A stretch of 64,000 nt of DNA, from the NCBI GenBank assembly GCA_963765895.1, contig CAVXZB010000048.1, forward strand, positions 32,001 through 96,000, in the 5' to 3' direction. A model generated the notes under the pieces. It saw only the letters and a program-made list of their open reading frames with translations. It did not search any database and was not told the DNA's origin. This document shows positions 6,681 through 39,345 of this stretch, piece after piece (the stretch's first letter is position 1; each line of letters begins with the position of its first letter). Origin of the DNA: an uncultured Nitrososphaeraceae archaeon. GTDB taxonomy: Archaea; Thermoproteota; Nitrososphaeria; Nitrososphaerales; Nitrososphaeraceae. The position numbers were made by a program, and so were the translations under genes.

Positions 6681-6830
6681 TGCGCGCCTCATGATTGACA
6701 TGCATCTAATTTTTATGAACATACCAAGTCTGTACATTTGATCTCTCAATTCAGAAAACCTCTTTAATGTGATATATTTCATAACGTAAATTAGACGACA
6801 TTGTTTCCGACATTATTGATAGCACCAGTT
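6681..6830 (+). repeat. Dispersed modular element (A+B+C variant)
   Basis: GCGCGCCTCATGATTGACATGCA...TACATTTGATCTCTCAATTCAGAAAA...TTTCATAACGTAAAT; close match to 26660-26800. Confidence 0.85.
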
Positions 6831-6831
6831 A

Positions 6832-6948
6832 AATAAGAAATTTTTGAATTGTTTTCACAGACAAGTAATGCGGAAAACCTTTGTTAAGCTCGACTATTAG
6901 ACTACAAATTGTAAGCAGGTTACCACTTGGTGACTAATAACCGTAATA
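6832..6948 (+). repeat. ~115-bp direct repeat, second copy at 20806-20921
   Basis: AATAAGAAATTT.TGAAT...AAGTAATGC.GAAAA...TTACCA..TGGTGACTA...CCGT.AT is present in both copies. Confidence 0.75.
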
Positions 6949-7175
6949 TGCCGCACCGATTCTGTCTTACCATGTCTTGGTATGTTTATGTATAGTATTA
7001 AATGAACCAGCCATAAACACTCTAAATATAGTATACACATAGTTTAATTTTTAAAAGAGAACAATTATCGAAGCATTCCAGAGAATTTCTAACCTATAGT
7101 AATAGTCTTTTAGGCATTTTGGAAGGCAATGCAAGCATAGAAAAACTTATTAAAATACCTTTACATATCCCTCTG

Positions 7176-7595
7176 ATGTCATCAGTAGAGTCTTTAAGAG
7201 GAGTTGTCCGACGATTGGAAGACACGTTTAACGATCCACAGCGTAGAGAATTATCTTATTTTGATTTTTATGATGATTCCTTGACTTTTCATGATTTTCC
7301 TCCAAATCAACCAGCCAACAAGGAAGGTTTTAAACAGTTTATTTATCTCCTATGGAAAGCATTCCCTGATATAATAATCACTTTTGATGATATCGTAATC
7401 GAAGGAAATAAGGTGGCATGCAGATACAACTTATCTGGAACCCACAAAGATCAATTTGAGGATCTTCGGCCAACCGATAAACAATTCAGGGTCAATGGTA
7501 TGACCGTATTTTCTTTCCGTAATGCAAAAGTCATAGAACGTTGGAATGTGGTAGATATGAAGTCATTGATGGAACAGTTGAGGACCCAATCCTGA
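7176..7595 (+). CDS. SnoaL-like ester cyclase (NTF2 fold)
   Basis: AFPDI...EGNKVACRYNLSGTH...PTDK...KVIERW. Confidence 0.85.
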   Translation: MSSVESLRGVVRRLEDTFNDPQRRELSYFDFYDDSLTFHDFPPNQPANKEGFKQFIYLLWKAFPDIIITFDDIVIEGNKVACRYNLSGTHKDQFEDLRPTDKQFRVNGMTVFSFRNAKVIERWNVVDMKSLMEQLRTQS

Positions 7596-7687
7596 GCCAT
7601 GTTTGTCATTCGCATAGATCAACACCGGCGGTAAGTTGGACAAACCTAATGTTCTAAACAGATACTGTCCTTAACATATTGAATGAG

Positions 7688-7945
7688 GGTGCCTCATGAT
7701 AGATATGCACCTAATTTTTGTCATCACAACAAGGCGTCAGTCTATGCATTTTATGTCTCGATTCAGAAAAGGTTTATAATCTGGCGCGCCGCACATCTGT
7801 AATAGAAGACGCTATTTTCGAGATAAATAAATTAGATCTGCTGCAAAATCTGAAATACTCAGACGTATTAAAATTACTGGACATTAACATAATTAATTAG
7901 TCAGTTTACATGGATTAATTGTTACTACTATCTATAGATATCAGA
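7688..7945 (+). repeat. Most complete copy of the dispersed modular element (A-B-C-D-E)
   Basis: In order: GTGCCTCATGATAGATATGCAC; GTCAGTCTATGCATTT..ATTCAGAAAA; TTTATAATCTGGCGCGCCGCACATCTGTAATAGAAGACGCTATTTT; TACTATCTATAGATATC. Confidence 0.9.
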
Positions 7946-8250
7946 TTCTCGCAAATCAGAGCTAAAATTTAACTGGTCAGTCGGCTCTTAGGTTCTATTG
8001 TAGAGGGGCAAAGCCATTAGCAGGTTGGTTAGTATCATGGGGGATCTGGTACCAGGTGCAGTTTCTGGGGCTGATATGTAACCCAGGCGCTATAGTTTTG
8101 GCACAGCTGTCACTATTACATCCACAATTTTATCATTTCGAAGATACAGCGCAAGCGCAAGACAAGATCAATATTAAGAAGCTTGTTGTAATAATAGTGG
8201 TGATCATAATAATGAGCGAATTTGCATTCTTCCGATTTAGAAGTCATAAT

Positions 8251-8529
8251 ATGCTAACTATAGAAGAAGAACAGCATAAGGATGAGATCGTTGAACTAAC
8301 AGAAGAAGTTCTAGATACAAAAGGTATGGAATGTGATTCCAAAATATCAAAGATCTCTGAGGAACAATTAAGAGAAATTCTTGAAGAAGTAAGGAAATTA
8401 CGAAGGAAAAGAAAAAGACTACTCTCAACAGCAGGTGATAGTACAGAAAAAGAAGAAGAAGTAGAACATCCGAATGAGAAGAAAGCCCATATATCAGATA
8501 GTGGCTATATATCCTATAGAGGCGCTTGA
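8251..8529 (+). CDS. Small charged hypothetical protein
   Basis: ATG at 8251; MLTIEEEQHKDEIVELTEEVLD...; followed 9 bp later by the next ORF. Confidence 0.6.
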   Translation: MLTIEEEQHKDEIVELTEEVLDTKGMECDSKISKISEEQLREILEEVRKLRRKRKRLLSTAGDSTEKEEEVEHPNEKKAHISDSGYISYRGA

Positions 8530-8538
8530 ATTCCATAG

Positions 8539-8907
8539 ATGGTAGAAAGCCTTACAACCCGCTGGCTTTTAGCTCTTGGCTTAGCTACGTTATGTTTTGG
8601 AATATTTCTATTTGTGTTGCGAATTCCAGTACGAACAATAGGCATATTTTTTGCGTTAGGAATACCTTTGATTTTATTATGGCTATATGTTGGTGATAAA
8701 TCAAGACAACAGCAGCCAAATGATGGGAAGACAATTAGTGATCTTGGTAGTAGTAATAATCCTGACCAACACCAACTACAACAGCAATGTATATGTCCTA
8801 TCTGCAAACATGAACAAGCAGGAGTATGTCTGAATCAAAAATGTGCATGTTGTACTATAATGAAAGGAAATAAGGTAGTCGGACATAGCATTAATCCATT
8901 GCAATAG
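8539..8907 (+). CDS. Two-TM membrane protein with Cys-rich C-terminus
   Basis: Two hydrophobic helices, then CICPICKH...CLNQKCACC. Confidence 0.7.
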   Translation: MVESLTTRWLLALGLATLCFGIFLFVLRIPVRTIGIFFALGIPLILLWLYVGDKSRQQQPNDGKTISDLGSSNNPDQHQLQQQCICPICKHEQAGVCLNQKCACCTIMKGNKVVGHSINPLQ

Positions 8908-9356
8908 ATAGCACTGTAGATAGTGATGTTGTATTACACGATTGTCACAAATATACTATACTATTAATGAAGGGGCGCGCCTTTCCCTAACTAGCCTTTG
9001 ATTATGACATTGCTGCTATCACAACATAAGCTTATTGAATGGTTAAGTGATAAAATATCGAGGAGTGTTAGCTTAACCAAATGGGCAGCTCCTGAATAGA
9101 CTCGAGCAGTCATCATCAAATAGTGGATCTCAAACATCATATATTATTATTTTATTTAAAATCATCCGAATAACCCTTACATCTATAATTATTCATAGTT
9201 TAGGTTGGCCTACATTCATCAAAAGTAAGTAAAAAATGGTAGCCTATCTGTATTAATAGTAAGATAAAGAAAAGGCTGTAGTTTGAAATACTATTCAATT
9301 GACTATTATTTAGATTTTGAATTTTGATTTTAGCCAGATAATATTTATATAAAATA

Positions 9357-9704
9357 TTGAGAATGGCTTTCCTAATGAGAAAGAACACTGTATTGTGTGT
9401 AAGTCTCCTGCTTTCAGTAGCACTCGGATTCTCTATACTAGCCAATGCTGGTTTCAGTGGCGCGCCGTCAGTATTTGCACAGACAATAACACCGAAAATG
9501 CACTTGGAGGAAGGGCTTAAGGCATTAAAAAGTGGCGATAATCAAGGAGCAATGATGCACTTGAATGCAGCAGATCAGGGTCTTACTAGTGCTTCCGATC
9601 AATCTGCAAAGATGCACTTGGATCAAGGAATTCAAGCGTTAAAGAATGGAGACAATCAAGGAGCAATGATGCACTTGAATGCAGCAGATCAGGCTCTTAA
9701 ATAG
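9357..9704 (+). CDS. Secreted helical tandem-repeat protein
   Basis: Signal-like N-terminus (VFAQ) and two copies of KMHL..G..ALK.GDNQGAMMHLNAADQ. Confidence 0.8.
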   Translation: MRMAFLMRKNTVLCVSLLLSVALGFSILANAGFSGAPSVFAQTITPKMHLEEGLKALKSGDNQGAMMHLNAADQGLTSASDQSAKMHLDQGIQALKNGDNQGAMMHLNAADQALK

Positions 9705-9816
9705 TATAAATTAGTCCAAGAAATAGAGCTTATTTCAGGATAAATTTTTTTCATTTTGGACGTACGCCGACAACTGACATACAAATGAAGTTTAACCTCA
9801 TTAGTGTCTATGTATG

Positions 9817-9960
9817 AGGTCTATACAGAGAACGGCTTATCTTAGATAATGCTTATAATCTCGTATGCTGCAATCTGTATTAGAAGACACTTTTCCGATA
9901 TAATTATGCAGGATCTGATATGTTATCCGATTTAGTCTGATTCGGATTACTAATATGAGA
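9817..9960 (+). repeat. Dispersed modular element (B partial + C + D)
   Basis: GTCTATACA...TTATAATCTCGTATGCTGCAATCTGTATTAGAAGACACTTTTCCGATATAATTAT; abuts the stop codon of the PriX-like remnant. Confidence 0.85.
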
Positions 9961-9973
9961 GTCGGTTATCTAC

Positions 9974-10200
9974 CTACGGTTTAGCCAACACATTGTACAA
10001 ATATCTATTTTCTATCTTTAATTTCCCAAACCTTATAGGTAGATAACCATTCATCTTTGCTGTACTAACATTATATTTGATCATATAATTGGGATTAAAG
10101 TCTAGTCTCATCAGAGAACTACATCTGTCAAGCCAATTCGGTATTGCACCAAAAGCCTCATCAGGAAAAGATTTTCTAATATTAATATGATATGAAACGA
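9974..10200 (-). pseudogene. PriX-like primase-domain protein, C-terminal remnant
   Basis: HINIRKSFPDEAFGAIPNWLDRCSSLMRLDFNPNYMIKYN...GYLPI resembles the PriX helical domain. Confidence 0.7.
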
Positions 10201-10581
10201 AAATATGCACATTGCAAATTTTTCCCATGATTCCAATATGGTGTTGCACGTACACCATTAACATCGAGCGATGTATCTGGAAATGCACCTGCCGTTTAGT
10301 CTAGACTATGTCCGGCTTATTCTCGGACGAATTCAATAAGGTAATCTAGGGAAGATGCATTCTGAGTATATCTTACGTACGCACGCATGTGCATTGCAGC
10401 ATACTGAATTTTTATAAAACGCAATAAATACAGTCAGAAGTACCAAGTAACTGATAAGCTAGAATGATTATTTTATTTATTAATACAAAATAAACAGTGA
10501 ATATGATTAGAACACATTATAAAATTGTGTGCATTCACTATAGCTAGGAATCCCCAGCGATTTCTCTTCGGTATTGACATT

Positions 10582-10628
10582 ATAGGGCGATCCGGGTGGA
10601 CAACTGGCCCGGTCGCTCTATCTTTTCT
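10582..10628 (+). terminator. GC-rich hairpin followed by a short T-tract
   Basis: ATAGGGCGATCCGGG pairs with CCCGGTCGCTCTAT (one G-U, one bulge), followed by CTTTTCT. Confidence 0.45.
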
Positions 10629-10823
10629 AGTTATAGATGTTATTACACTATAGAAAAAATCGAGGTGATATCGATAATAGGAATTTTGAATACCAATTGA
10701 GAACTCAGACTATAGTGCCCAGATATTACACTGGAAGATTCATGCTCCAATAATTGGAGGTATGATATCAATTGGGTAACAGCGAGATCAAATTAATAAT
10801 TAGAAGATCTAGTATCATCAACA

Positions 10824-10932
10824 CCCGAGATACCCGGCTATTTTGACTCTTGAAAGATTTTAGTGATATATAGAAGACACAGAATAAAGTTTAATTTATA
10901 ATAGAATTCAAATCTATCCAGGACATCTCGGG
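10824..10932. repeat. ~110-bp element with imperfect inverted ends (MITE-like); similar copy at ~34645-34762
   Basis: CCCGAGATACCCGG ... CCAGGACATCTCGGG, with internal TAGAATTCAA. The second copy reads CCGGGGTATCCCGGGCTAT...TAGAATTCAATAATATCCCGG. Confidence 0.45.
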
Positions 10933-11409
10933 CGCAATTATATCATATCAGTATAGTTTAAAGCAGGTGAGGCTATCTATAATAGGTATAATAAGGATAA
11001 AAGTGGTAACAAACGCTAGTTATTAATCAATTCTGTTTATGATGAATACAAATATTCTACACAAAATCTTATTGTGATATGAGCGAATCTCATCGCCTAT
11101 CTAACATTCTCATCTTCAAGAAAGGACTAGAGCGCATGAATAAAGTGGCGCAGCAGGTGGGGTTAGAAATAGGGAAGGAAGTTATAACATCGCTCTGTCG
11201 AATATAAAGAATGTTTTACCAGAATTTGTGAAGTGGCAATTGCCAATCTATCTGGATCGTCCTGATAGACAGGCATCTAATTTGTATCAACATTCCAAGG
11301 CATCAGACTATACATTTGATATCTCAATTTGGTATAGAGCAAGTTCTTACCATGTCCACTTGATATATTGAATCCTCCTGTTCTATAGGTTAAAGGCTAT
11401 TTTGTTTTT

Positions 11410-12027
11410 TCATCGACATATATAGTACCTACTTATCTTAAGAGGTTCTTCTATAGATTCATCCGTGATTAAATTGACAAAATGATATCTTTTATCCTCA
11501 GTATTGTAAATTATTATACTTGGCGTATTCTCAATCTTATTTTCTATATTTGGAAAGTTCCTATGTGCTGTACCAGGATTGAGTACTTGTATTCTCTTGA
11601 TAGCTGCCTCATTTTTCAGAGCTATCTCAACTGTTTCATTACGCCGCTTGTGTGTATGACCGTGAATAAAGACATCATAAATTCCACTCCGAATAGCGGC
11701 CTCCCTGAGATTTTCGCTTGTTCCATGATAGATTCCAAACCTAGAGCTTGAGATCTCTCTATCATCAAATTCAGCCTTCAATTCGCCACCTATTTCTATA
11801 AATTTTTTGGATAGCATTAACTTTTCCCCATCATTGTTACCCAACACTCCGATGACTCTAACCTCCGGTAACACGTCCTTCAAATTCTTTAATTCATCTA
11901 CCACTCCAGGGAATACAAAATCACCTGCATGAATGACTAGGCTTATGCGTTCTCTTTTGAATATTCTGATGGCTGATCTAAGACTGTCAAGATCATCGTG
12001 GGTATCCGAAATAATACCTATCTTCAT
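11410..12027 (-). CDS. YfcE/MJ0936-family metallophosphoesterase
   Basis: SDTH, HAGD, GNND, YHG, HGHTH and NPG motifs. Confidence 0.92.
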   Translation of the reverse strand: MKIGIISDTHDDLDSLRSAIRIFKRERISLVIHAGDFVFPGVVDELKNLKDVLPEVRVIGVLGNNDGEKLMLSKKFIEIGGELKAEFDDREISSSRFGIYHGTSENLREAAIRSGIYDVFIHGHTHKRRNETVEIALKNEAAIKRIQVLNPGTAHRNFPNIENKIENTPSIIIYNTEDKRYHFVNLITDESIEEPLKISRYYICR

Positions 12028-12284
12028 AAGGACGTTAACTAGCCGTAGTCATTATTTCAACTTTAAGTACAATAAATTAGTTAATTTACAAACTCAAATA
12101 GATGATGTCTCCAGCAAAAGTCCCTCGCAATAAGGACATTTTTCAATCAAGTCCAAATTCAATCTGTCGTTATCTATAAGTGCATGGCAGTGTCGGCATT
12201 GTATTGTCAATTTTATATACCACTCTTCTATAGAAGACTATGCCATATAATCCTTTAATTGTATATTTTCTTTATATACTAACA

Positions 12285-12568
12285 CTAAGACTTATAGAAA
12301 ACCGCGCTCGAAAAGAGGATATTGATGTGACACTTCTCCTTTTTGACCGTCTCAAACAACCGATCGAGATCAGCTAGGTTGCCGGCATCACCCTGCACGC
12401 CGGTGATGTTCATATCAATTTCTTCGACTGCATTATCAAGCCTTTTGGCTGCTGGCCGGTGATGAAGACATACGCACATTTCTCGATGAATAATTTCGCG
12501 GTAGCAAGCGCCATACCGCTGGTCGCTCCTGTAATGACAGCTACTCTATTCTCTAATTTTTTTGACAT
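12285..12568 (-). pseudogene. Short-chain dehydrogenase, frameshifted and truncated
   Basis: VAVITGATSGMALATAK, then GVQGDAGNLADLDRLFETVK in another frame; the catalytic half is missing. Confidence 0.85.
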
Positions 12569-13076
12569 GGATAGAGGCATTCCGTTTCCTCTTTTATGGA
12601 GATCATCCATTATCCCTTATCCATTATTCACAACCCACTCCTTATCACTACATTAAGAATTGTAATTATATAAGTTGATAATTCGAGGTCTAACCATTAG
12701 GTCTGGATGATAAGGTGATGGAAGATATAAAATCGTCTACTTTCTATCTGTTCCAGTATAGAAAGTACCTTTTGATCCCAAGCATCTCCTATTACCTGAA
12801 CCACACAAATTGTCGAGTCGGCAACTGGTTTTGGAAAATAAAGAGCCATTTTACCTAATAGTTTATTGCCTATAGAATCTCCCTTGCAGCTTTAGCAAAT
12901 TGACAAAGTTACAGATTATTTCTGACTGGCAACGTATCAGGGAAATTATTTTAATTGGTATAGTATTGAGGCTTTAATAAGCAAACTAAACATGTTACAG
13001 AATATAGACTTGGTCTTCTTCAAGATCCTGTCAATATTTATGCAACTTTTTTATTCCGTGTTGTATAATGGAAAGA

Positions 13077-13557: not shown

Positions 13558-13778
13558 TTTTATCGTAGATAGGGTACATTACGATATATTAACTATTTGG
13601 AAGAAATATTACATACAATATTCTTATGTGTTTATCTTATATTAAAAGAAGAAAAACTAATAATATTTTGATAAATATAGAAATAAATTATGAGATATGT
13701 CTCCATCAACTAGCCTTTTCCTGCCCAGTACAATATGTAAATAGTAAGACGTCAATTAATCGTCAGTAGGTTTGCAAA

Positions 13779-14072: not shown

Positions 14073-14461
14073 TAAGTTAAAGTAATACTCAGCGATGTAT
14101 GTATGATTGCTACTAATTCAGAATATGTGTTACTCTAACTATAGAACTACTAAATAGGTTAGCTAGCAGATTTGCAGCCATTATATTTATCACTCCATCT
14201 ATGTGAAATTCATTGACTATTGTCGAGTAACCATAAAAATATTAGCCATTACTGTAATCTCATTCTTATAGAGAGTAATAAACTTAGTTACTGAACATGA
14301 TGTGAAGATAATCAAGGTTTTAGTAAACGTGTTATATGGCGCGCGCCTAATCATGGACATGCAGCTTTTCATCTTGAGCACATGCTTATACGACTGGCCA
14401 TAATATAGTTAAGATATTACAGAATGTATCAACGCCACTCAATATTCCCATAAGCTCATCT

Positions 14462-15657: not shown

Positions 15658-16513
15658 TCTTACTTATCTTCTCCTATTCCATAATAGTTTTTATCGTAAA
15701 AATCCGTCGGAATATACTAAGTATCGCAATGAATAACTTCAAAGACATGAAAGAAACTCACTTCTAGTTGAGAATTTTTCTTTAAACCTTCAATACATAG
15801 CATTTATGGTAAATTCTGCATTGTTAGACCGTACTCAGTTTAGTATATATTTTATAACTTCACTATAGGAAAAGCGAGCAGATTGTGTTCGCAATAGAGA
15901 ATGAAACAAGACAATTGCATATTATCATTATCTCATCACAATCAGTAGTAGGCATAGTAAATTTTTCATAATTTCTCTTGCGTTCTAACTTCATTCCAAA
16001 TGATCGTATTCGATTTGTAGTCTCTGAAAAATCATGTACTTTGTCTCCTAACAAAATAGTCTTTTACATCTATATCGAAATCTACTTCAAACTTTATTCT
16101 TAGTCTTAAATTGCTAGTTTAACCATCGCCACTCAACTCCTTATATCTCCACTCTATACAAATTAGGATTATAGTTCCTATTCATTAAATGACACTCTAA
16201 TCTATATTATAATTATAAACTCGAAAACAATTAGCAATTATAAATAAATTTGATGAGGTAGTAGCGTCTACAATAGAATAGTCTTTAAACCTAAAAACAG
16301 TATCATCCAGTTTTTCTTGCGCCAATATTCATAACCTTCTTCGTGGTTAAGACCTATTTTCTAATTATGTTCTGGTGCAATATATTCTAGTTGTACATAT
16401 CAACGGCATGGTTTTTAAAATGAATACTGTCTTTTTATATAGCATATTCAATTGGTAATGTGGAACATGTGCTTGCGCGCGTCCATGTCTTAGGTGCAGT
16501 CGACAAGTAGGTG

Positions 16514-17075
16514 CTACCAACCCAACACCTTCGCAGATTTTGCAGCTGCACCTCGTGACGCTTGATTAGGATCCTTATTTTCAAATTGAACTTCGTAGAT
16601 CGCCTGTCGAATATTATCAGCTATTTGAGGGTATTCAGGAATTGATGGCCGTGTTCCTGCAAACGGAATCATGGAGACTAGTTGTCTATAATATGGATAA
16701 GATAAAGCAGTAGAATTTAATAAATCACTTTTACCCATGGATATTTGAGTTGGCAGTACCCCAGTTTGACGAAGATAAGGACCAAGTATCTTGGGCTCGA
16801 GGGTTAGTTCAATTAGCTTCCATGCAAGATCCTTATGAGTGGATGCCTTGGGTATGCCTAATGCATAGCCTCCCATCAATGTTGAAGTTTGATTATTTTT
16901 ATATGGAACTGGTAGCGCTGGGATAAAACCAATCTTGTCTTCAAATTCCTTTCCAGACTTGCTTTGAAGAAATGTTACAGGTAGCCATGATCCTTCAATC
17001 ATGACTGCAAACTCACTGTCTAAAAATTCCGCTCCCCCGAAATGATTCTTCTGTGGTTTAATTCCAGCATCGACA
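16514..17075 (-). pseudogene. Sugar ABC transporter substrate-binding protein, C-terminal fragment
   Basis: AVMIEGSW, MGGYALGIPK, RPSIPEYPQIADNI; no N-terminal half or permease genes nearby. Confidence 0.8.
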
Positions 17076-19141: not shown

Positions 19142-19549
19142 ACTTTTGGATATAAGGATTTGCTTTATATGCATTTATAATGGAAATAACAAATTATTAT
19201 TAAAGTTTAACTATATGTTCTTATTTTGAGACAAAATATTCGGTCGGAACCAATCGTAGTAACAGCTTTAGACGAATAGCTGAAGTATATTCTAACGTAC
19301 CGTCAAGTATATTGGAATTAAGAAAGCAAGAATGAGATTTAAAGTAATTATTATCGTTTCGAACTGCGTGCACTTAGGACTTCGGGGCCGCTTCTGTCTC
19401 TCGTCATCATATAATTATATAATTATACTTCATTAATAAGCTCAGGATATTATTTGGCGTGCCTCATGATAGAAATTAGGTTTATGATATGCCGAGGTAT
19501 AGGCCATATTTCTCGTTAGTATTGTTGGTAACGATGATCAAAAATGCAC

Positions 19550-20594: not shown

Positions 20595-20773
20595 CTAGCC
20601 TGAGCCTTGTTATACAATAACTGTTTTCTGTCTTTAATTTTCCCCAGACTTATCAGTAAATAACCATCCTTTTTGCAGAATTAATATTATATTTGATCAT
20701 ATAATTGGGATTAAAGTCTAATCTCCTTAAGGAATCACATCTGTCAAGCCAATTCTTTATTATATTAAAAGCC
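20595..20773 (-). pseudogene. PriX-like C-terminal remnant
   Basis: AFNIIKNWLDRCDSLRRLDFNPNYMIKYNINSAK; a 35-nt stretch is identical to the ~10070-10104 copy. Confidence 0.8.
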
Positions 20774-23002: not shown

Positions 23003-23090
23003 TTGTGATATGCTTCCATATTGTTATTAGAAGACACTTTCTGACATCATTTATGTTGGACTTAAGTGTCGCTGCGATTTCGATTTAAAC
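23003..23090 (+). repeat. Dispersed element (module C partial)
   Basis: CATATTGTTATTAGAAGACACTTTTCTGACATCATTTATG. Confidence 0.65.
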
Positions 23091-26429: not shown

Positions 26430-26659
26430 CATTAACTCTATTCTTTCCTGCTCAATCATTATGCTTGCGACTATATTGATAAACTATTTGACTCTCTATA
26501 TTCAAGAGAGCTGTGGCTTACCTTCATTCAAGCCACACTGCTAGTGTTGATTATCCTCTGATTCAAAAATTTTTTTGTAATTTGTAATTGCGATATTATT
26601 TTCTGAGGGGAAATTACACTACAGAAGTCGGGGATTTTTTTCTTTTTGTAATTGCTATA

Positions 26660-26800
26660 TGCACCTCCTGATAGATATGTAAATGAATTCTTGTTGTCCT
26701 AACCAGACTCGGTTCTATACATTTGATCTCTCAATTCAGAAAAAACCATTTTTAATGCGATATGTTTCATAACGTAAATAGAAGACACTATTCCTAGATG
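26660..26800 (+). repeat. Dispersed modular element (A+B+C variant)
   Basis: GCACCTCCTGATAGATATG...CTATACATTTGATCTCTCAATTCAGAAAA...TTTCATAACGTAAATAGAAGACACTATTCC. Confidence 0.85.
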
Positions 26801-26875
26801 ACTGGACCCGGGATTTAGAGGTATAACAGACTGTTTATTGGTGTAGGAGAGATGGTAGTTCATCTACTGCTTGAT

Positions 26876-27124
26876 TCAATGATTAAATGTCGTGCTTTGA
26901 CGATGATAAAATTCAACTGCATATACATGCTTGCATTTGGTATTGTGACGAGCGTAATCTGGACATGAACAAACCCATCCAGATTCAGTTGCAATGACAG
27001 TATAAGTGTTATAGCCGGATTTTGATCTTACCCTATAACTTGATTCATTGATCATCGAAATAGCGCCACTTGTTTGGGCTATCAATCTGCCTTGCTCTTC
27101 ACGGTTGACGAGTCGTCTAGGCAT
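26876..27124 (-). CDS. Stand-alone SWIM zinc-finger protein
   Basis: WVCSCPD...KCKHVYAV (CxC...CxH). Confidence 0.85.
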   Translation of the reverse strand: MPRRLVNREEQGRLIAQTSGAISMINESSYRVRSKSGYNTYTVIATESGWVCSCPDYARHNTKCKHVYAVEFYHRQSTTFNH

Positions 27125-27598
27125 GTTTAGCCAACCGTGCGCATCCTAACCGCAGGAATTAGTTTCTCGTCTATTGCCTCATCAAATCTTTTATTAGGAT
27201 ATTCTTGGCATTCTCTTCTGATTCTAGTCACTCCATTCAGGTCTTTCGTGTATATGCGCATCAAAGCGTTTTGCCCATCTTCCCATGTACTCTCGAATCT
27301 CTCTCGAATCTCTCACCAGCATATTCCTTATAAGAATCAGAACCAAAATGCCAGATAGTGACAATCCAAGAATCATGATCTGGAATGGATGATAATGACA
27401 ATGACAGTGATGAGGGCGCGTTCTATATATCGTAGCGTCGCCTATACACAAGTTAATACATTAGAAAGTCGAACCAGAAGTATAGCAAGGTAGGAAACGA
27501 TAGAGCTCGAGATCCTAATTTGGTAATTCACTGAAAATATTATTTGATAACGTTACTTGATCTAGCCTATTTGTGCGGCGAAATGTCAGTGTAGTAGA

Positions 27599-28177: not shown

Positions 28178-28300
28178 GTATTATTCTCTTAGGTAGCCGT
28201 CTAGCCCGCCTTAAATGGCGATTTTCAAATTGAAATATGAATAGTGCCATTGAGGAAAAGCGTATTCTCGGCATCCGAGGACTTAACATAGTCACCCAGA

Positions 28301-28410
28301 ATATTTATAATCTGGCGCGCCGCACATCTGTATTATAAGACAGTGTTTCCGATATAATTACACGGGACATGTCAAAATCCGATACTGTCCGATGTGTTAA
28401 GACTTGGCTA
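28301..28410 (+). repeat. Dispersed element (modules C+D)
   Basis: TTTATAATCTGGCGCGCCGCACATCTGTA is identical to 7773-7801, followed by TTTCCGATATAATTA and ATCCGATACTGTCCGATGTGTT. Confidence 0.9.
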
Positions 28411-28456
28411 TAGATTGAATTAGAGGACAGATTATTAGGTTATAATATAATTTAAC

Positions 28457-29937: not shown

Positions 29938-30016
29938 TAAACAGTAAGATAGCAGCAGATCTACAAGAGATATAGGATGCTACTATTAGACCATAGATGG
30001 GTAGCATAGAGGGTGA

Positions 30017-30100
30017 TTGATTTCACAACATAAATAGAAGATACTATTCCGATACCTATCTTGGATCTGATAGTATCCGATATTGGTCTAAATTAGATTG
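30017..30100 (+). repeat. Dispersed element (C partial + D)
   Basis: AAATAGAAGATACTATTCCGATA...GGATCTGATAGTATCCGATATTGGTCT. Confidence 0.7.
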
Positions 30101-30602: not shown

Positions 30603-30699
30603 ATCCAAGTATTGAGAATTTCAAAATTCATTCTGACCTTTTATTAGTAACGATTCATTTAAATGTCTTTTTCTAAAGGACCAACTTATGCCATTGCTA

Positions 30700-31015
30700 C
30701 AAGTGACAATGCACCACACAACAAATTTCCTATAATCAACCAATGGAGTTTGCAACAGTTTTTCTATCCACCCAGATTTTAGTTGAATTTGTGGTCTGGG
30801 CGCGCTCTCTATTAGTATACCTAGATTGTACGAGTTTTGCATCTATGAGCCATCTTTTAAAATAGCGCAGTAGATAGTTTATCGCAGGCCTTTGACCATC
30901 CCACCTTTGCATGATTGTGACTACCTGCCCGCATTTTGAATTTATCATTCCAGGAATGCTACGATAAGAGGTTTTAATCTTGCTGAAGGAGTATTTGAAG
31001 TATCTATTGCACGCT
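30700..31015 (-). pseudogene. PriX-like protein, central remnant
   Basis: SIPGMINSKCGQ...QRWDGQRPAINYLLRYFKRWLID...TTNSTKI / WIEKLLQTPLVDYRKFVVWCI. Confidence 0.75.
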
Positions 31016-31035
31016 GAGTACGATATTTTATGGAA

Positions 31036-31977
31036 TCATACTTTTTTAGCCTTCAATAATATATAGTCGATAAGTCCCTGACTAGAATCAACCTTCATTT
31101 CTAAAAGTGATTTGTAAAGAATAGCTTCAAGAAATATTGGGTATTCTCTAACTATCATACTCTTTAATTTATCTCTGTTCTGAATATAATAGTTCGCTAA
31201 TGGCCCATATACATTTTGGCCTATATACTGGATATCTTTGATTTCGAAACCATGTGTTTTAACTATCGATTTGACGTATTCTAACTTGTAATGTTCTGAG
31301 ACCCAGGTTACAGATAGTATTCCAAGTTTTATAAAAAGTGGTAATGATAACAGATTAGAGGCATTTGCTATAACTGGCATTGCCAATACCATAAGTCCGG
31401 AGGGTTCTAAGACCCTATTTGATTCTTGTATAAATTGTATCAATGGTTTAAAATGCTGCGCAGATTCTAAAGCAATTACTCTATCTACAGAAGTATTTCT
31501 AATTGGTAACATTGTGGAGGTCGCATTTATATGAAATATATTATTATTTCTTAAACTCTTTAGTGGGACTAACCCCACGCCATAATCTATTGTTTGACTA
31601 TTTGACTTGAAAGCGACAGCAATCTTTAATTGTTCTAAATTTATATTTATACATAGGATTTTCAGGAAACTATATTGTGATTTCCATTGAAGTGCAGGAG
31701 CAGAATATCCGCTCCCAACATCTACTAATCTTGTTGCTGTCTGCAAGGAAGCAAATTCTCCAATCATTTTAGAAAGTCTATATTGTGCCTGCAAAGGATA
31801 TTGAGTCTTGTCATCCCAATATCCAAAATTGAGCATATTTCCTCCAGTTGTAATTTGCATTAAGCCTGAAAGGGAATTGTAAAGATTGATAACATCATGT
31901 TCATTGCGTCTAAGAGTAGATAGAAATAGTTTAAGTAGATTAGTCAAAGGCAATATCAAAGCGATAGACAATTTCAC
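31036..31977 (-). CDS. Class I SAM-dependent methyltransferase
   Basis: MLNFGYW, LVDVGSGYSAPA, DRVIALESAQHF. Confidence 0.88.
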   Translation of the reverse strand: MKLSIALILPLTNLLKLFLSTLRRNEHDVINLYNSLSGLMQITTGGNMLNFGYWDDKTQYPLQAQYRLSKMIGEFASLQTATRLVDVGSGYSAPALQWKSQYSFLKILCININLEQLKIAVAFKSNSQTIDYGVGLVPLKSLRNNNIFHINATSTMLPIRNTSVDRVIALESAQHFKPLIQFIQESNRVLEPSGLMVLAMPVIANASNLLSLPLFIKLGILSVTWVSEHYKLEYVKSIVKTHGFEIKDIQYIGQNVYGPLANYYIQNRDKLKSMIVREYPIFLEAILYKSLLEMKVDSSQGLIDYILLKAKKV

Positions 31978-33328: not shown

Positions 33329-33595
33329 TGGTCATTTTATATAATGACATAATCTATATAATTATAGTTCCAGCTTCTAATCTGTCAGTATAAATTTTCT
33401 GAATTCGTCAATTGAGCGCGGATATAAAAGGATTGAAGGGGCTAATGCTTACAGTTTTTAGTCATAGAATATACTACTGAGGAGTTCAGTTAAGTCCGCT
33501 AATTGGGTAAATCGAGATCCAAGCAGTCTTTCCACATTACTCTTTGGGCTGAACTGTACTTATCTTGTCCTACTTTGCCCTATTCATTATGTCAA

Positions 33596-34193
33596 TTAAG
33601 CAGCTGGAATTGATGGTGGCCGCATAATTGATAATGATGAATTATCTGACGGTCGATGATTTGGTATAGTTGTACTACCAACTATCTCGAACTGCTGAGA
33701 TCCTTTAGGAAAACTGAAGATTATTGTTCTATCTAGCGTAGTTGAAGTCTCGTCAAGTGATTCTATGAGATTTCCATCTATTAGTACCTTAAAGTTGTTA
33801 TTAAATCCTATTAAAGATGTATTTGAATCCTATTAAAGATGTATTTGAATCCTCAGTATCGATTAAACCTCTAGGCAATTCCAAGGTAAATTTCCCTGGT
33901 GATGGTGAAGTAATATTTATAATGACTATTGAATTGTTTGCTAGTATCTCATTTAGTTTGTTACCAAAGCCAGTAATTTCATATTTCATAACATCGCCGG
34001 GCCTATTGGTTAGCACCCCTCCCTTCATCTGCTCCAGTTGATTTAAGGGCATAGGCGTAATTTGGTGTAGTGAAGAGTTTTGTAGGCCTAGTAGTAGGCG
34101 TAGACGTTGTAGGGAGGAGACAGCTCGATTAACAAATTGTGGTGGTGGTTTTTGCGGTATCGGTGTACTTGGATTATGCTGCAAGATCTGCAA
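33596..34193 (-). pseudogene. Surface-protein domain frameshifted by a 22-bp tandem duplication
   Basis: KYEITG...PGKFTLELPRGLID, then FKVLIDG...RTIIFSFPKGSQQFEIVGS in another frame. Paralogous to 47305..47817. Confidence 0.7.
33804..33852. repeat. 22-bp tandem duplication
   Basis: AATCCTATTAAAGATGTATTTG x2 plus AATCC. Confidence 0.95.
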
Positions 34194-34219
34194 AGAGTCA
34201 GATCGAGCCGCGCGTGGTT

Positions 34220-34317
34220 AAATAGTCAAATGTTGTCCGATGTGTTGAACTAATTACATATTAACAGACTTAGTATAGTGATTCGCATAGACTAGCTGAT
34301 ACTATCTATAGATATCG
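34220..34317 (+). repeat. Dispersed element (modules D+E)
   Basis: TGTCCGATGTGTT...TACTATCTATAGATATC at 34300-34316. Confidence 0.75.
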
Positions 34318-34883
34318 TCAAGGAGTTGACAGATCTAAGGTTCATTACCCGTCATAATGGTTTTACCTATCAATAGAATCAGCTGGTCCTGAGTCAGTTT
34401 GGATTTTTAATAACTCTTTATTCGCAGTCGGATCGTTGTACATGATATTATGCTCTATTGGATCCGGATAAGTTCATTAATTTAGATATAATTTGCAACG
34501 TAAGTCTCCTGCTTTGTAGCAATTATTGGATAGTGTGGCACGAACATATGCCCTTACATTTTCCGGCCAAGCGTACATCATTATTGTAGTGATTTGGTGT
34601 GTATTGAAAGATTATGTTATACAATCGAATAGAATTCATGAACTCCGGGGTATCCCGGGCTATCTTCTATCCTAATGAAGAATATAGGTGTATGATAGTA
34701 TCGTAACACAATAGATAATGCAGTAGTTGTATTAGAATTCAATAATATCCCGGTTATTCTAGATTCGCGATCTTATGTCAAGAGGAAAGAGGGTTCATAT
34801 GGCAGTATAAAAACTCCCGTAGTTTCTTTAACTCCACTTATTAGTCTGGTTAAACTCATTTCATTGGTAAGATAGACTAAGGC

Positions 34884-35210
34884 TTGGTGCTAGAAGACAA
34901 AGATATACTACAAGTTGATGCCACAATAATTACAGGTATACTAATTATGCTTAGCATTACAGGCTTTATTGGATCTGGCGTTGGCAAGACCAGTTTTACA
35001 GGTCTGGCGAGCCTAGTCTCCATTATATTAATTCCGTTTAGTGTATCTGCAGTTTTGGTAGTTCAGTTAGAACGCATGAAGCCGTCTTATGTGCGCCGCG
35101 TCAAATCGATAAGTTTGACTCTTATGGAATTCGGGTTTGTTGCTCTTATTTTTCTATTTATATTATACTTCTTGTTCCCTCAAATCCAATTAGAGCTTCA
35201 TTTAAGATAA
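34884..35210 (+). CDS. Small three-TM membrane protein
   Basis: DILQVDATIITGILIML followed by two further hydrophobic helices. Confidence 0.65.
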   Translation: MVLEDKDILQVDATIITGILIMLSITGFIGSGVGKTSFTGLASLVSIILIPFSVSAVLVVQLERMKPSYVRRVKSISLTLMEFGFVALIFLFILYFLFPQIQLELHLR

Positions 35211-35477
35211 ATATGAGGCTAAGTTTCGTCCCTTAATTTGAAGGGATTAAACCGGTTGATGGGTTAGGAAAGGCCCAACCAATAACCTATAGGAGATACA
35301 TGTGACCTAACCTGAATTGGTTCTATATCATCGGCAACCTCGATTTCATGACTTATGGTCTATGCATAATGACCAGAATAATATACCTGACGGGGTTATA
35401 GACCGTATATTATTAGGAATTTGGCACTCCTAATGATTGACATAGATAATGACTGGATTTATCCCAAGCTCAATTAA

Positions 35478-35882
35478 CTAATAGATCCATTCCCAATTTC
35501 TGGCAGAAGTATTGCCAATTCCATTTACTTCATATTCAAAGACTGCCACAATATTGTTAATAAAAGCAAGGCTTCCGCTTGAATCAGTATGATATATTAC
35601 TGAGCCACGAAATCTTATTACATGTGGAGTGGTAAAGCGTCCAAGGCCTTGCGCAATCCATGTTGCAATTTGACCATCTATAGTTGTTAAAACACCTTGT
35701 CCTTGTCCATACAAAGCTCCATCCGGCCTTGGAATACTCAAATAAGTTCCCAAGTCTGTAACTGCTATAGTTCGGAATGTTCCCTCAGCGGAGAAAGTGC
35801 TTTCTATTTTAGGTCCTTCAGCATCAACTATCCGCTGACCGATAATACGGCCAACCTCTTGTCCTAATTCTGCGCCTAGCAT
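35478..35882 (-). CDS. Conserved hypothetical beta-rich protein
   Basis: MLGAELGQEVGRIIGQR...RPDGALYGQGQG...FEYEV...WEW. Confidence 0.75.
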   Translation of the reverse strand: MLGAELGQEVGRIIGQRIVDAEGPKIESTFSAEGTFRTIAVTDLGTYLSIPRPDGALYGQGQGVLTTIDGQIATWIAQGLGRFTTPHVIRFRGSVIYHTDSSGSLAFINNIVAVFEYEVNGIGNTSARNWEWIY

Positions 35883-36306
35883 ACTATAATTATCATGAGT
35901 TTTGACTATTAAGATATTGTAAGCTATTCTAGGAATTTCTGATCTGTAATTATAATAAATTAGCATCCTTGCTACTACTGTTATTCTTAGCATTGTACAT
36001 AAGCTACTAGTGTAAACCAAAAAGTAGCAATTAAGGGAGTAAATTTCTTTCATCTATGGTTTCTCAAGTATCATAAATATCAATTACCTATAGTTTGCTA
36101 CAGATTGGCATGTCCTACACATTACTGTTCCTATTACACTATTGAAATTCAAAATTGAAAGTGTCTGGACTGGCGCATTGACTAATTGTCTGGAAATACA
36201 ATCAACGATTACGATAGTAATAAAATATCTCGCTAAATCCTTTACTAATACCCTCACGACCATTTCTTAGGACAACTCTGCATAGTATAGATACTTAGCA
36301 TCATGA

Positions 36307-36600
36307 TCACAAATTCCTAAGTATCGTGGCAGTTTGCTCAGCTGTAAATGCCTTGAGAGTCATAGTCGTAGAACTGCCCTGTTGGCTTTCATATGATAAT
36401 AGACTTGACATAATTGTTGCATCATCAGGAGCCTCTACAATGGATACACCATCATATTGTCCCAATGTATAGTATGTGCTAACCAACTTCCCTCCTGCTT
36501 TCTCTATACTGTTTTTAAAAGTTTCAGAACGTTTTGCAGAATCCTTCACAGTCCTTATTCCTTGTTCTGTGAACTTCCATAGAATAATGAAGTGAGCCAT
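36307..36600 (-). CDS. GYD domain protein
   Basis: FTEQGIRTVKD, YYTLGQYD, EAPDD, TLKAF. Confidence 0.9.
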   Translation of the reverse strand: MAHFIILWKFTEQGIRTVKDSAKRSETFKNSIEKAGGKLVSTYYTLGQYDGVSIVEAPDDATIMSSLLSYESQQGSSTTMTLKAFTAEQTATILRNL

Positions 36601-36855
36601 CTTTCTTTTTGGAAATCATTGTCAATTTGATATATATACCTATCTTGGTACTGTATTCAATGATGGTATAGTGTTTGTCTGATGCAACAGGTCTAGAGTG
36701 AAGATAGAGCGCAAGCAGCACCATCACCATATATGCGCTAAAAGAAGTATTTGCTATTTCTAATCCGGATTCATAGTCACTAAACTATGAATAGAGTCTA
36801 GCTGCAAATCCAATCCACTTCAGACGAAGATTTCAACCTAATTACATACGTGATT

Positions 36856-37732
36856 TCAGTATGCCAAAGATGGAAGAAAAGGCAGTCGTGGTTCTTGGTA
36901 AGGACCAATCGTCATGAGATTTGCAGGCCAACCTATTTGGAAGCGATTTTCAAGTAGCCAGTTAATTATCTCATGATTCCGGCCAGGTACTAAGAAGCCA
37001 GGACCAAGAATTGTAGAAGCATTAGCAATCAATGTCTTTAGATCATCATTTGATTTAGCAACCGCATGACATAGTATTCCTATACCTGCTGCGTAGCCAG
37101 TGACAGCACCATCTTGTTCTATCATAAATGCTACTCCTTGGTCTATTGCCTGGCGTAATTCCATTTCCCGTGAAAATCCATATGCTGAATTACAAAGCTC
37201 GTTGCACAAGGAAATATCATTATCATCTAGAACTAGGCGCGCGTTGCGATTGCTTGCATGATTGATTTCGCTTTTTAGTGGTTGCCCTTGCATCAAAAAT
37301 AAAGGTTCACGTAGAATGAATCCGCACTTTGTATACAATACGAAGGAACGAATATGACTCGGCGATTGTACTAACATAATCTGGTTATGGTTATGTCTAT
37401 GAGCTTGAATAAGTGGCAGCATCCATCAATTTTCTACCTATACCGCCACCCTCAGCAGTAGGATGGACTGTAAGCGGGCCTATGACAGCCACAGGCGAAG
37501 GCGGAAATTCATGGAGGAATACGCTTCCTAATATCTTGCCTTGACGCTCTGCTAAAACTCCCCATGAATTCGGATTACCAAGAAGCATTCTGATAAGCTC
37601 TATACCAAACTCCTCAGAAGGCTGCTCTGAGGGATAACCATGGGCTGAAGAAATGGTCTTGTGCGCTTCGTACCCGATCATGCCGCAGGATTCTACATCA
37701 TTCTGTTCAATGGGCCGTATAGTTAAACTCAA
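36856..37732 (-). CDS. GNAT acetyltransferase (one +1 frameshift near 37415)
   Basis: IGPLTVHPTAEGGGIGRKLM, then LYTKCGF in the second ORF. Confidence 0.85.
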
Positions 37733-37867
37733 TTACAAATTACTAGCAATTGATCTCTAATATTAAAAGTAAATTTGGTACGAAGACAAACTTTCATTAA
37801 CCTTATCTTGGATCGATAGAATGTCAAATATGTTCTGAGACCCTCATCGTCAAAAACATTTTCTAAT

Positions 37868-37983
37868 ATTATAAGGTATTGTGCTAGGATATGCCGTATA
37901 ACGTATTTTCTGTACTCATCTATCGGAGTTTTCACTAGTTTTTCTGTCCATCCAAATCTTAGAAGTTGTAGTCAGGGGCGCGC
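37868..37983 (-). pseudogene. PriX-like remnant
   Basis: WTEKLVKTPIDEYRKYVIRHILAQYLI; the right boundary is GGCGCGC, fused to repeat module A. Confidence 0.75.
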
Positions 37984-38005
37984 ACCTCATGGTAGACATC
38001 TACAA
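37977..38005 (+). repeat. Dispersed element module A (other short copies at 14338, 19456, 39170)
   Basis: GGCGCGCACCTCATGGTAGACAT; GGCGTGCCTCATGATAGA (19456); GGCGCGCCTTATGATAGATTTGCAC (39170); GGCGCGCGCCTAATCATGGACATGCA (14338). Confidence 0.75.
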
Positions 38006-38147
38006 AAATTTTACCATCATACACAGGCGTGTCACTATAGGAGTGGAACAAACCAATTAACAAGTTTTTAGATAGATATTATCAGATTAATAGCATTACA
38101 AATTCTCATCTAGCGGTGATAAAGTAACAAGCTCATTTTTTAAAATT

Positions 38148-38513
38148 ATGGACAACAAAAATCTTACAATCGTTGCTATTTCAATATTAGCATCATTGTT
38201 AGCAGGTTGTGTGTTTATGTCTTCAGAGATCGCATTTGCATGTGGACATCACCATTCTGAATCCATTCGGCAAACAGCTACACAGACTAATGCTTGTGGA
38301 AACGGAATCATGTCGTTAGACATTAATTGTCAAAATATAGGCCACCAGATTAACGGAGATCATAATGCAGACAATATGACAGGCATTCGGCCAAGTAGTA
38401 TCTTCGGTGGGTTTGATCATGGTAATGACGGCCATAATGGTCATAATGATCAGGGTAGCAGCCCAAGTGATTATATCCCCGTTGGTAATCCAATCACAGG
38501 TGCTGATCCCTAA
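38148..38513 (+). CDS. Small secreted protein
   Basis: Signal-like N-terminus, QTNACGNG..INCQN, and a His/Gly/Asn-rich tail. Confidence 0.7.
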   Translation: MDNKNLTIVAISILASLLAGCVFMSSEIAFACGHHHSESIRQTATQTNACGNGIMSLDINCQNIGHQINGDHNADNMTGIRPSSIFGGFDHGNDGHNGHNDQGSSPSDYIPVGNPITGADP

Positions 38514-38849
38514 GAATTCTTATAAAGAAGGTGCAGAAAATATAATTTTAGCGGATTCAAGATTTAATCCTGCAAGAACGAATGAACATATCAACAATCA
38601 ACAAGTTTGAATCGCATGATATGTAACTTTAATAAATATGACATAGGATAGACGGCTAAGTCGCCGAGAAGCGAGCGCGCGCCTACCTGTACAAGGGATC
38701 AAGCAGGTCTCTCTTAGGACAGATAAGTGCTAGCCATAAACAAATAGCGAACACTTTCACGAAGCAACATCTAGTACATTCCAGTGAATATACAATCCCC
38801 TCCGCCTCTCCCTTTGTGACAGTGTTGTTAAAAAGAAAGCAGACTTAAG

Positions 38850-39140
38850 ATGTTACTCGAAGTGTCCCAAAATGAACAAAATGAAAATGGCAACGACGAT
38901 ATCTTAGCTAAAGAGATCGAATCATGGAAAGACTTTAGGTATGCTCTAAGGGAAGAAAATGCAGTTCTATTTAATAAGATGCTTTCTGAGAGTGTGCACA
39001 ATAGAGGCTACGTCAAAGCTGCTATCTCCAAATGCGAAAACTATTCGGCTGAATCATTATTTATGCTCTTAATATTGCAGCAGCAAAAGATGATAAATGA
39101 ATTGATAGCCAAAGTATCCAAATTTAGTTACCCCTTATAA
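38850..39140 (+). CDS. Conserved hypothetical protein
   Basis: KEIESWKDFRYALREEN...AESLFMLLILQQQKMINEL. Confidence 0.7.
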   Translation: MLLEVSQNEQNENGNDDILAKEIESWKDFRYALREENAVLFNKMLSESVHNRGYVKAAISKCENYSAESLFMLLILQQQKMINELIAKVSKFSYPL

Positions 39141-39194
39141 TGCAATTTAGACTAGATGTATAAGAAACTGGCGCGCCTTATGATAGATTTGCAC

Positions 39195-39345
39195 ATAACT
39201 TACGCCATACTTCAAATTTTCTATAGTCATCTAACGGTGTTTACAATAACTTCTCAATCCACTAGATTTTAGTAGAATTCGTGGTCCAGGCGCGCGATTT
39301 ATTGAATTGTTCAAGTTATTCATCTATGAGCCATCTTCCAAATTG
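39195..39345 (-). pseudogene. PriX-like remnant
   Basis: RWLIDE*LEQFNKSRAWTTNSTKI*WIEKLL*TPLDDYRKFEVWR; DNA homologous to 30720-30857. Confidence 0.8.

Follow-up and report, generated by a model that had tools for sequence, protein, structure and literature searches.

Soil ammonia-oxidising archaea have large, gene-poor genomes, and the assembly of their islands is little understood. We describe a stretch of 64,000 nucleotides (nt), hereafter the window, from an uncultured Nitrososphaeraceae archaeon (GenBank assembly GCA_963765895.1, contig CAVXZB010000048.1, positions 32,001 to 96,000 of the forward strand), in which a zone of mobile-element relics is rich in the palindromic hexamer GCGCGC, often extended to the octamer GGCGCGCC. 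An earlier note on this DNA had drawn attention to the palindrome and likened it to HIP1 of cyanobacteria. Here we set out where its copies lie, how far they are inherited as parts of a repeated module of about 165 nt and of a primase gene, and what is found at the joints that they mark.

The zone and its genes

The zone is a decayed tract of mobile-element DNA from a soil ammonia-oxidising archaeon. It is gene-poor (open frames of at least 70 codons make up 65% of the window). The window has a G+C content of about 35% all along, and a gene for the DNA polymerase D large subunit is found at its right end. Fragments in the zone include pieces of hydrolase, dehydrogenase and DUF4760 genes, and between the relics stand small cargo genes on both strands (SnoaL, glyoxalase, GNAT, GYD, MsrA and PhnB-like). 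Domains were sought in 65 frames of at least 80 amino acids and in 76 of 155 frames of 58-94 amino acids (1-40.2 kb, clear of annotated larger genes), and no DNA methyltransferase or restriction enzyme domain was found by Pfam in these 141 window frames. There is no tRNA or tmRNA in the window, and Rfam gives no match at its gathering score in the whole window and none at E<=1 in 4000-40500.

For comparison we used species-representative genome contigs that match a DNA pattern taken from the module. The pattern matched 28 contigs; seven are relevant and belong to metagenome-assembled genomes (MAGs) of Nitrososphaeraceae or Nitrososphaerales, the other 21 being chance matches in unrelated bacteria and one methanogen. 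Contigs of the related MAGs are cited below as L001, L005, L018, L021, L023 and L026, and W followed by a number denotes a window position. L001 is 95% identical to window 5636-8443, and L005 is 94% identical to 7106-7710. The genes and gene relics that matter for the argument, the primase relics being found by tblastn with the intact L023 gene, are as follows (ORF, open reading frame).

689..1788, minus strand: tyrosine recombinase gene, broken into three frames
6593-6667, minus strand: relic of the N-terminal part of a SWIM gene
10094-10207, minus strand: AEP/PriX primase relic
20710-20772, minus strand: AEP/PriX primase relic
26879..27124, minus strand: SWIM zinc-finger ORF, 82 amino acids
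30702-30957, minus strand: AEP/PriX primase relic
37840-37950, minus strand: AEP/PriX primase relic
38862..39137, plus strand: ORF X, of no family; its 3' flank runs up to the core at 39170
39184-39354, minus strand: AEP/PriX primase relic
39971-40075, plus strand: sixth AEP/PriX primase relic

An intact homologue of the window recombinase, 385 amino acids long, is encoded in L001 (372-1529) and matches Phage_integrase (E 1.8e-9); matches of the recombinase to the XerA model are distant and far below cutoff. The primase gene is intact in L023 (7305-7994) and L026 (4936-5529). Its front part looks AEP-like by eye, and its PriX-like helical domain (NCBIfam PriX, E 3.5e-12; also Pfam PriX) resembles PDB 4wyh. 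The family comprises 1434 protein clusters (90% identity) at E<=1e-5, mostly of 250-360 residues and named, where a name is present, Primase X or hypothetical protein of Nitrososphaeraceae, which suggests that the gene is highly expanded or mobile in soil Nitrososphaeraceae. Beside one of the relics, a SAM-methyltransferase frame (31039-31977, minus strand) ends in a single in-frame stop that is followed by 99 open codons of primase relic (30739-31977).

Enrichment of the palindrome

Compared with dinucleotide-preserving shuffles of the 64-kb window (n=100), GCGCGC is strongly in excess: its 15 overlapping matches form 13 loci, starting at 6682, 7784, 8975, 9460, 14339 (and 14341), 16475, 28315, 30800, 37237, 37978, 38675 (and 38677), 39171 and 39290, against a shuffle mean of 1.57 and a maximum of 5. 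None of the 100 shuffles attains 15 matches, and the loci are about eight times commoner than expected. The earlier note had claimed 13 sites at these same coordinates and had held them to be confined, with none past 39.3 kb, and both claims are borne out, since all loci lie within 6682-39295, the hexamer being absent from the window before and after these positions; some 29 kb outside the zone are without a site. The probability of finding 13 of 13 loci within 4600-39400 by chance is 3.6e-4. Exact copies of GGCGCGCC number five (7783, 8974, 9459, 28314 and 39170), where 0.02 are expected, rather than the six octamers counted previously, the sixth of which was probably the decamer GGCGCGCGCC at 14338-14347. 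Allowing one mismatch in the octamer adds two sites only, 19456 and 35006.

The ranking of all 4096 hexamers by a third-order Markov model (both strands), a check that had been proposed for the whole genome and is applied here to the window, places GCGCGC first, with 30 occurrences against 8.0 expected. Across the whole window the next most over-represented palindromic hexamer is CTATAG (78 against 49). The context G-CGCG-C accounts for 15 of the 52 CGCG in the window, and the excess is a property of the hexamer and not of its CGCG centre, because CGCG in other contexts has the same density in the zone as outside it (0.60/kb versus 0.55/kb). Masking of all stretches with a detectable repeat or homologue, 10.2 kb as judged by a small homologue set (the window plus 45 kb), leaves six loci in 53.8 kb against 1.1-1.9 expected (P 0.0009-0.015), all six of them in the zone. 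This check had been set beforehand, with a complete loss of enrichment named as the outcome that would speak against the motif; six loci survive masking with this set, and the enrichment appears to do so too.

These results bear on an explanation that would make the motif methylation-linked and similar to HIP1, in which CGCG would be the target of a lineage-typical orphan N4-methylcytosine (m4C) methyltransferase and GCGCGC would be kept or generated for an epigenetic or repair-related reason. In a published survey, the persistent orphan m4C group HG12, whose predicted target CGCG is the centre of our motif and which is typical of a sister lineage, is present in five of five complete Nitrososphaera genomes, but the same table does not list it for other Nitrososphaerales (PMC10609329). 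The CGCG enzyme of Nitrososphaera is accordingly a lead, not evidence, for this organism. The motif is palindromic, like the sites of such enzymes, and many of its decayed copies differ from it by CG-to-TG or CG-to-CA; however, C-to-T is the commonest change in AT-rich genomes anyway, and we know of no report of m4C as a deamination hot spot. The excess concerns only CGCG flanked by G and C, other CGCG not being enriched in the zone, there are no sites outside the zone, unlike what would be seen with a genome-wide mark, and the window frames searched contain no methyltransferase domain. We regard an origin in methylation as very improbable.

A diverged module in one orientation

Ordinary repeat finding returns few short pairs only, 74-86% identical, and misses the decayed repeats because their copies are only 65-80% alike. 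Profile iteration with nhmmer exposed the module, of which the window holds 11 copies, all on the plus strand.

4688-4837, plus strand: module copy 1
6001-6121, plus strand: module copy 2
6684-6819, plus strand: module copy 3
7690-7852, plus strand: module copy 4
9773-9929, plus strand: module copy 5
11257-11337, plus strand: module copy 6
23004-23065, plus strand: module copy 7
26661-26823, plus strand: module copy 8
28297-28382, plus strand: module copy 9
30014-30080, plus strand: module copy 10
37982-38039, plus strand: module copy 11

The matches to a position weight matrix (PWM) of the left terminus are likewise on the plus strand in nine of nine cases in the window. Twelve more copies occur in the seven related contigs, with one shared orientation within each contig, and the module directly follows the primase gene downstream wherever the 3' end of that gene has survived, which is so in three cases (L023, L026 and W9773-10300). 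Decayed primase coding DNA was rejected as the source of the module, its nhmmer profile matching five primase segments with a best E of 0.19, as was a known RNA family or tRNA, there being no Rfam match and no tRNA.

Two features within the module may be mentioned here. At its right end (7840-7860, 9915-9935 and 30060-30080) a hairpin of the form GGAT(C)...(G)ATCC is possible; the signal for its 4-pair stem is weak (83% of cells pair, a value matched by 37 of 500 shuffles), and RNAalifold predicts no structure at the right end. The left part (e.g. 7693-7780) yields similar peptides from its copies (MIDMHLIF...) when read on the plus strand from the ATG of the arm that follows the left-edge core, several differences between copies fall at third codon positions, and the information content at codon positions 1-3 is 0.87, 0.73 and 0.51 (seven codons, by hand), so that the left part may encode a tiny ORF. 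A scan for bacterial sigma-70 promoters and terminators is inapplicable to an archaeon and was left unused.

Inheritance of the motif at three positions

Three homologous positions carry the motif, namely the left edge of the module (class a), an internal site of the module (class b) and the linker of the primase gene (class c). The sites, together with decayed cores, are given row by row.

6682..6687: GCGCGC, class a; SWIM-gene relic start to the left, arm CTCATGATTGA and module to the right; orthologous to L001 3283
7687..7692: decayed core GGGTGC; left edge of module 7690-7852; the ortholog at L005 1308 reads GCGCGC
7783..7790: GGCGCGCC, class b; in the module, 3 nt downstream of the TATA-like TTTATAAT
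8974..8981: GGCGCGCC; intergenic; no homologue found
9459..9466: GGCGCGCC; in the signal-peptide region of a small-metal-binding-protein-like ORF (9357-9704, plus strand); no homologue found
14338..14347: GGCGCGCGCC, class a; the arm that comes next is the variant CTAATCATGGA; PWM score 30.1
16475..16480: GCGCGC; ORF 16514-17002 (minus strand) has its stop about 35 nt upstream of the site; flanked by CATG on either side; no homologue found
19457..19462: decayed core GCGTGC; then a perfect arm CTCATGATAGA
26659..26664: decayed core ATGCAC; left edge of module 26661-26823
27137..27142: decayed core GTGCGC; the SWIM ORF begins 12 nt downstream of it; GCGCGC in L018 1969, GCGCGT in L023 4152
28314..28321: GGCGCGCC, class b; in a module copy truncated at its 5' end
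30800..30805: GCGCGC, class c; in the linker that separates AEP-like from PriX-like sequence in a primase relic
37237..37242: GCGCGC; in open frame 36859-37425 (minus strand); arm 9-mer CATGATTGA 14 nt away
37978..37983: GCGCGC; junction of the PriX side of a primase relic (left) and the left part of the module (right), class c joined to class a
38675..38682: GCGCGCGC; intergenic; no homologue found
39170..39177: GGCGCGCC; 3' flank of ORF X to the left, arm CTTATGATAGA and then a primase relic to the right; L023 homology ends exactly here
39290..39295: GCGCGC, class c; in a primase relic

These three positions account for seven of the 13 sites, and the same positions hold GCGCGC or decayed forms of it in six other Nitrososphaeraceae MAGs. 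The members of class a with detectable homologues (6682, 37978 and 39171) consist of the core followed by the 11-nt arm CTCATGATAGA, and the site at 14339 shares this arm, its divergence being too great for BLAST. Among the left-edge termini of the window and its relatives, 8 of 21 read GCGCGC and the others are one to three changes off (GTGCAC, GCACGC, GCGTGC, GGGTGC); at the orthologous site W7687, the window reads GGGTGC and L001 GGATGC, and L005 has retained GCGCGC. The internal site of class b is GGCGCGCC in W7783, W28314, L001 2204 and L021 7645, and is degenerate in the other copies. Class c (30800, 37978 and 39290) reads GCGCGC in all three window copies that cover the column, with near-variants in six other rows, both intact genes included. 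The seven related contigs match the window in motif density, with 16 GCGCGC loci in 45.3 kb, 12 of them intergenic or junctional and four in long frames (patatin, hydrolase, an unknown ORF and primase); nine unrelated contigs of GC <=0.40 contain none in 72 kb. Judged by these alignments, most of the sites read as inherited copies of a few positions in repeated DNA. The earlier note was correct in holding that one repeat family is insufficient to explain them, as there are three positional families and six sites without a detectable homologue.

The setting of the two module sites would also fit an operator: a regulator encoded by the element would bind GGCGCGCC at the module's promoter-like sequences, which stand back to back, and the other copies would be further binding sites; a perfect 8-bp palindrome would suit a dimeric binder. 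The internal site follows closely on the TATA-like TTTATAAT; the site at the left edge is found about 20-25 nt downstream of an opposite-strand A/T-rich box and, in five contexts, 12-20 nt upstream of the SWIM start codon; and the two sites are about 95-100 bp apart. The promoters, however, were assigned by eye only, and no more than 4 of the roughly 17 copies that span the column have GGCGCGCC as their internal site, the three copies that stand beside preserved primase 3' ends being degenerate there. The remaining sites vary in where they stand with respect to genes, two being in ORFs, three in the coding linker and several downstream of stops. An operator role seems improbable to us on this evidence.

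Another possibility is target-site duplication: GCGCGC would be the site into which a miniature inverted-repeat transposable element, a small element bearing terminal inverted repeats, inserts, and each insertion would double it. Mini-elements bounded by the arm and an inverted arm, with core-like hexamers flanking them, can be found in L023 (4410-4638, GCGACC ... GCGCGC, the inverted arm scoring 16.0, just over the shuffle threshold), in L026 (329-569, GCGAGC ... GCGTGC) and, with the weaker inverted arm TTTATAATCTG, at W7687-7790 (GGGTGC ... GCGCGC). The first two nevertheless represent one event, because their flanks are shared. Inverted arms are rare, no terminus was found on the minus strand of the window, and orientation is non-random, with 11 of 11 modules alike in the window and one strand used within each of L001, L021, L023 and L026. 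No matching transposase was identified and no clean empty site was found: in the comparison of empty with filled sites for the L023/L026 mini-element, the W27395 and SWIM-upstream flanks do not align, nor do the right flanks. We give this possibility a small chance. The sites at 37978 and 38675 were also considered as a target-site duplication around a 690-bp primase insertion, which was rejected since the right flank does not align with primase.

Joints at the motif

Each flank of 29 sites was handled separately and the flanks were then clustered. What adjoins the arm flank varies, the joint falling exactly on the motif in each case: the partner may be the start of the SWIM gene, the primase on its PriX side, the region 3' of ORF X or unique sequence. 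To the right of the ORF X flank the window, L021 and L023 each continue with a partner of their own, and the homology between the window and L023 along this flank ends on the last base of the motif. At W37978 the primase gene breaks off at the site in its linker and gives way to the module. In L023 the order is SWIM, GCGCGT, 255 nt, GCGACC, module, as compared to SWIM, core, module in W6682, L001 and L026; the difference is exactly one inter-core segment, lost or gained.

An alignment end lies no more than 8 nt from the motif in six of the seven window sites with homologues, against a mean of 1.7 for random positions in the same homologous DNA (p about 0.002), a value that is indicative only, because the ends do not count as independent events and an alignment is prone to break off just past a conserved GC-rich word. 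The association with breakpoints that the earlier note had put forward as a check is thus present at the testable sites, and its idea of a recombination core is upheld in part: unlike partners are joined exactly at the motif and breakpoints are enriched there, but repair that relies on whichever short homology is most stable in AT-rich DNA would leave joints of the same kind, so that neither cutting by a recombinase nor the involvement of a dedicated one can be concluded from the joints.

One stretch next to these joints deserves separate mention. The 953 bp at 37846-38797 are present in the window, missing from L023 and flanked by the 5-nt direct repeat CCCTC; they carry 2 of the 13 GCGCGC sites as well as ORF 38148-38513, which is rich in His, Gly, Asn and Asp, secreted-looking and of no family.

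A proposed joint of integrative elements

The sequences show that the motif is enriched, that it is inherited at matching columns of several genomes, that the modules share one orientation and that joints fall exactly on the motif. We propose, with about even chances of being right, that GCGCGC is the conserved joint of a module family from Nitrososphaeraceae integrative mobile elements, and that the zone is their decayed accretion. Elements carrying a PriX-type primase and a tyrosine recombinase, or pieces of such elements, would have accumulated in one orientation in the island, and GCGCGC (often GGCGCGCC), often with the 11-nt arm CTCATGATAGA on one side, would be their joint or crossover core. 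The excess would then have two sources. Ancestral element DNA would have borne the motif at the module left edge, the internal module site and the primase linker, and would have been multiplied into many diverged copies; in addition, recombination between copies of the motif would have swapped, removed or inserted segments, which would leave the motif at block boundaries. The motif may be the actual crossover point, and a tyrosine recombinase may perform the crossover, the candidate being the family that is broken at 689-1788 and intact in L001.

Several observations weigh against this proposal. The recombinase gene of the window is broken, and its orientation relative to the modules differs between the window and L001. 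None of 22 termini has a mirror second arm at p<0.05, and no attC-like fold was found when seven module segments were folded as DNA (z -0.74 to +0.84); without a mirror arm and without such a fold, the site matches no known recombinase-site architecture. The information content of the core is similar to that of the arm and the core is lost in 13 of 21 termini, therefore neutral decay fits as well as function. A recent breakpoint (W37845/38798) uses the microhomology CCCTC, the breakpoints W8443, W36695 and W7106 are without a core, and the short form of L005 is explained, as read from its sequence, by deletion between GCAC repeats. The loci 8975, 9460, 14339, 16475, 37237 and 38675 have no detectable homologue and copy number does not explain them; the motif may thus have a role that goes further than inheritance, whether as a palindrome bound by a protein at the promoter-like sequences of the module or in connection with methylation of CGCG. 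Moreover, the related DNA amounts to 45 kb only and was chosen for carrying the module.

A rival explanation is passive hitch-hiking, in which the motif was present by chance in an amplified ancestral repeat and has no dedicated function; the joints would coincide with it only because a GC-rich 6-10-mer offers the stablest microhomology in AT-rich DNA to ordinary end-joining or slippage repair. Such an origin agrees with a motif that is conserved no more than its flanks, with the decayed termini and the broken recombinase, with the use of CCCTC and GCAC at other junctions of the region, and with the (GC)n run at one orthologous site (W39171, L021 5604 and L023 621), which varies between three and four units as slippage would give. 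It leaves unexplained, however, why the same rare hexamer stands at no fewer than three separate places in an element family of 35-38% GC, and why there are six non-repeated copies in the zone and none outside; the shared orientation of 11 of 11 modules and the one-sided arm point instead to a polar, site-directed process. Passive hitch-hiking is unlikely in our view, yet it deserves serious weight.

A more specific form of our proposal is that the islands harbour an undescribed cassette-shuffling system, with a one-armed site (GCGCGC plus CTCATGATAGA) at the module head that would be cut and rejoined by an element-borne tyrosine recombinase, so that small cargo segments would be assembled, deleted and permuted. 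Such a system would be a functional archaeal counterpart of integrons or dif modules with another site architecture, and we consider its existence rather unlikely.

Other features of the window

A 66-nt inverted repeat, 86% complementary, brackets the accessory zone, its arms lying 45 kb apart (2456-2521 and 47969-48034). An insertion-sequence-like unit at 43547-45846 has a DDE_Tnp_1 transposase frame (43547-44266, minus strand) between or overlapping 124-nt inverted arms (43599-43722 and 45723-45846), and a DUF4096 frame (IS4/5 N-terminal) is found at 58351-58761. ORF 9357-9704 contains a 91-nt tandem duplication, 86% identical (9495-9585 and 9609-9699).

Comparison with known systems

HIP1 (GCGATCGC) of cyanobacteria is a GC-rich palindromic octamer that occurs far above the expectation from composition, genome-wide and including core coding regions. 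GCGCGC and GGCGCGCC are likewise short GC-rich palindromes well above expectation, but a single 33-kb zone of mobile-element relics contains every one of the 13 sites here, with none in the remaining 29 kb or so, and over half of them are copies of three homologous positions. The analogy with HIP1 drawn in the earlier note is therefore rejected on the point of genome-wide spread, as no site in the window stands outside the zone of repeats and relics.

The attC sites of integrons have the core GTTRRRY. Like an integron, the zone has co-oriented repeats (modules and left termini alike) with a short core at one sharp boundary, the repeats separate small unrelated cargo genes, and a tyrosine recombinase gene, recognised by generic family matches (Phage_integrase and the XerA model), lies beside the array. 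An attC-like hairpin was nonetheless rejected, since the seven DNA folds are no stabler than shuffles; the module does not fold as a single-stranded hairpin, cargo genes are on both strands, and the core is GCGCGC. Integrons with canonical folded attC sites are reported from archaeal MAGs in a paper the text of which contains no term beginning 'Nitrososphaer' (PMC9668308).

Modules flanked by dif sites occur on bacterial plasmids. The 6-bp central word beside a conserved 11-nt arm and a recombinase that distantly matches XerA resemble the Xer/dif arrangement, but there is one arm only, and a full dif-like palindrome was rejected because none of the 22 termini has a significant mirror arm. The Xer/dif site is described as two 11-bp arms and a 6-bp spacer, and Thaumarchaea are stated to lack xerA (PMC2958812).

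The zone also resembles the arrays of tandemly integrated elements described for Thaumarchaeota, which re-use one attachment site and carry AEP-type replication genes (PMC6563490). The zone shares with them a tyrosine recombinase, co-oriented direct repeats between bodies, AEP-type genes and heavy mosaicism. It differs in that no tRNA or other identifiable target gene is present, the units are short (0.7-5 kb) and thoroughly decayed, and the repeat ends in a GC palindrome that is also found inside element genes. The literature that we found contains no description of this palindrome or this module, and nothing relevant on island repeats or integrases of Nitrosocosmicus. Our observations are best placed among the junction repeats of integrative elements, arrays of which that re-use an attachment site are known in this phylum (PMC6563490), with the palindromic, one-armed core as the unusual part.

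Significance

If the palindrome is only an inherited word in amplified junk, the case is one for caution, as an excess of a k-mer may stem from a few positions in decayed repeats. If it is a true joint, it would provide a sequence handle for island boundaries and for tracing the movement of stress and detoxification cargo among Nitrososphaeraceae, and a candidate pair of recombinase and site would become testable in vitro. If a dedicated recombinase acts on the motif, this would be a new cassette-shuffling system of soil ammonia oxidisers.

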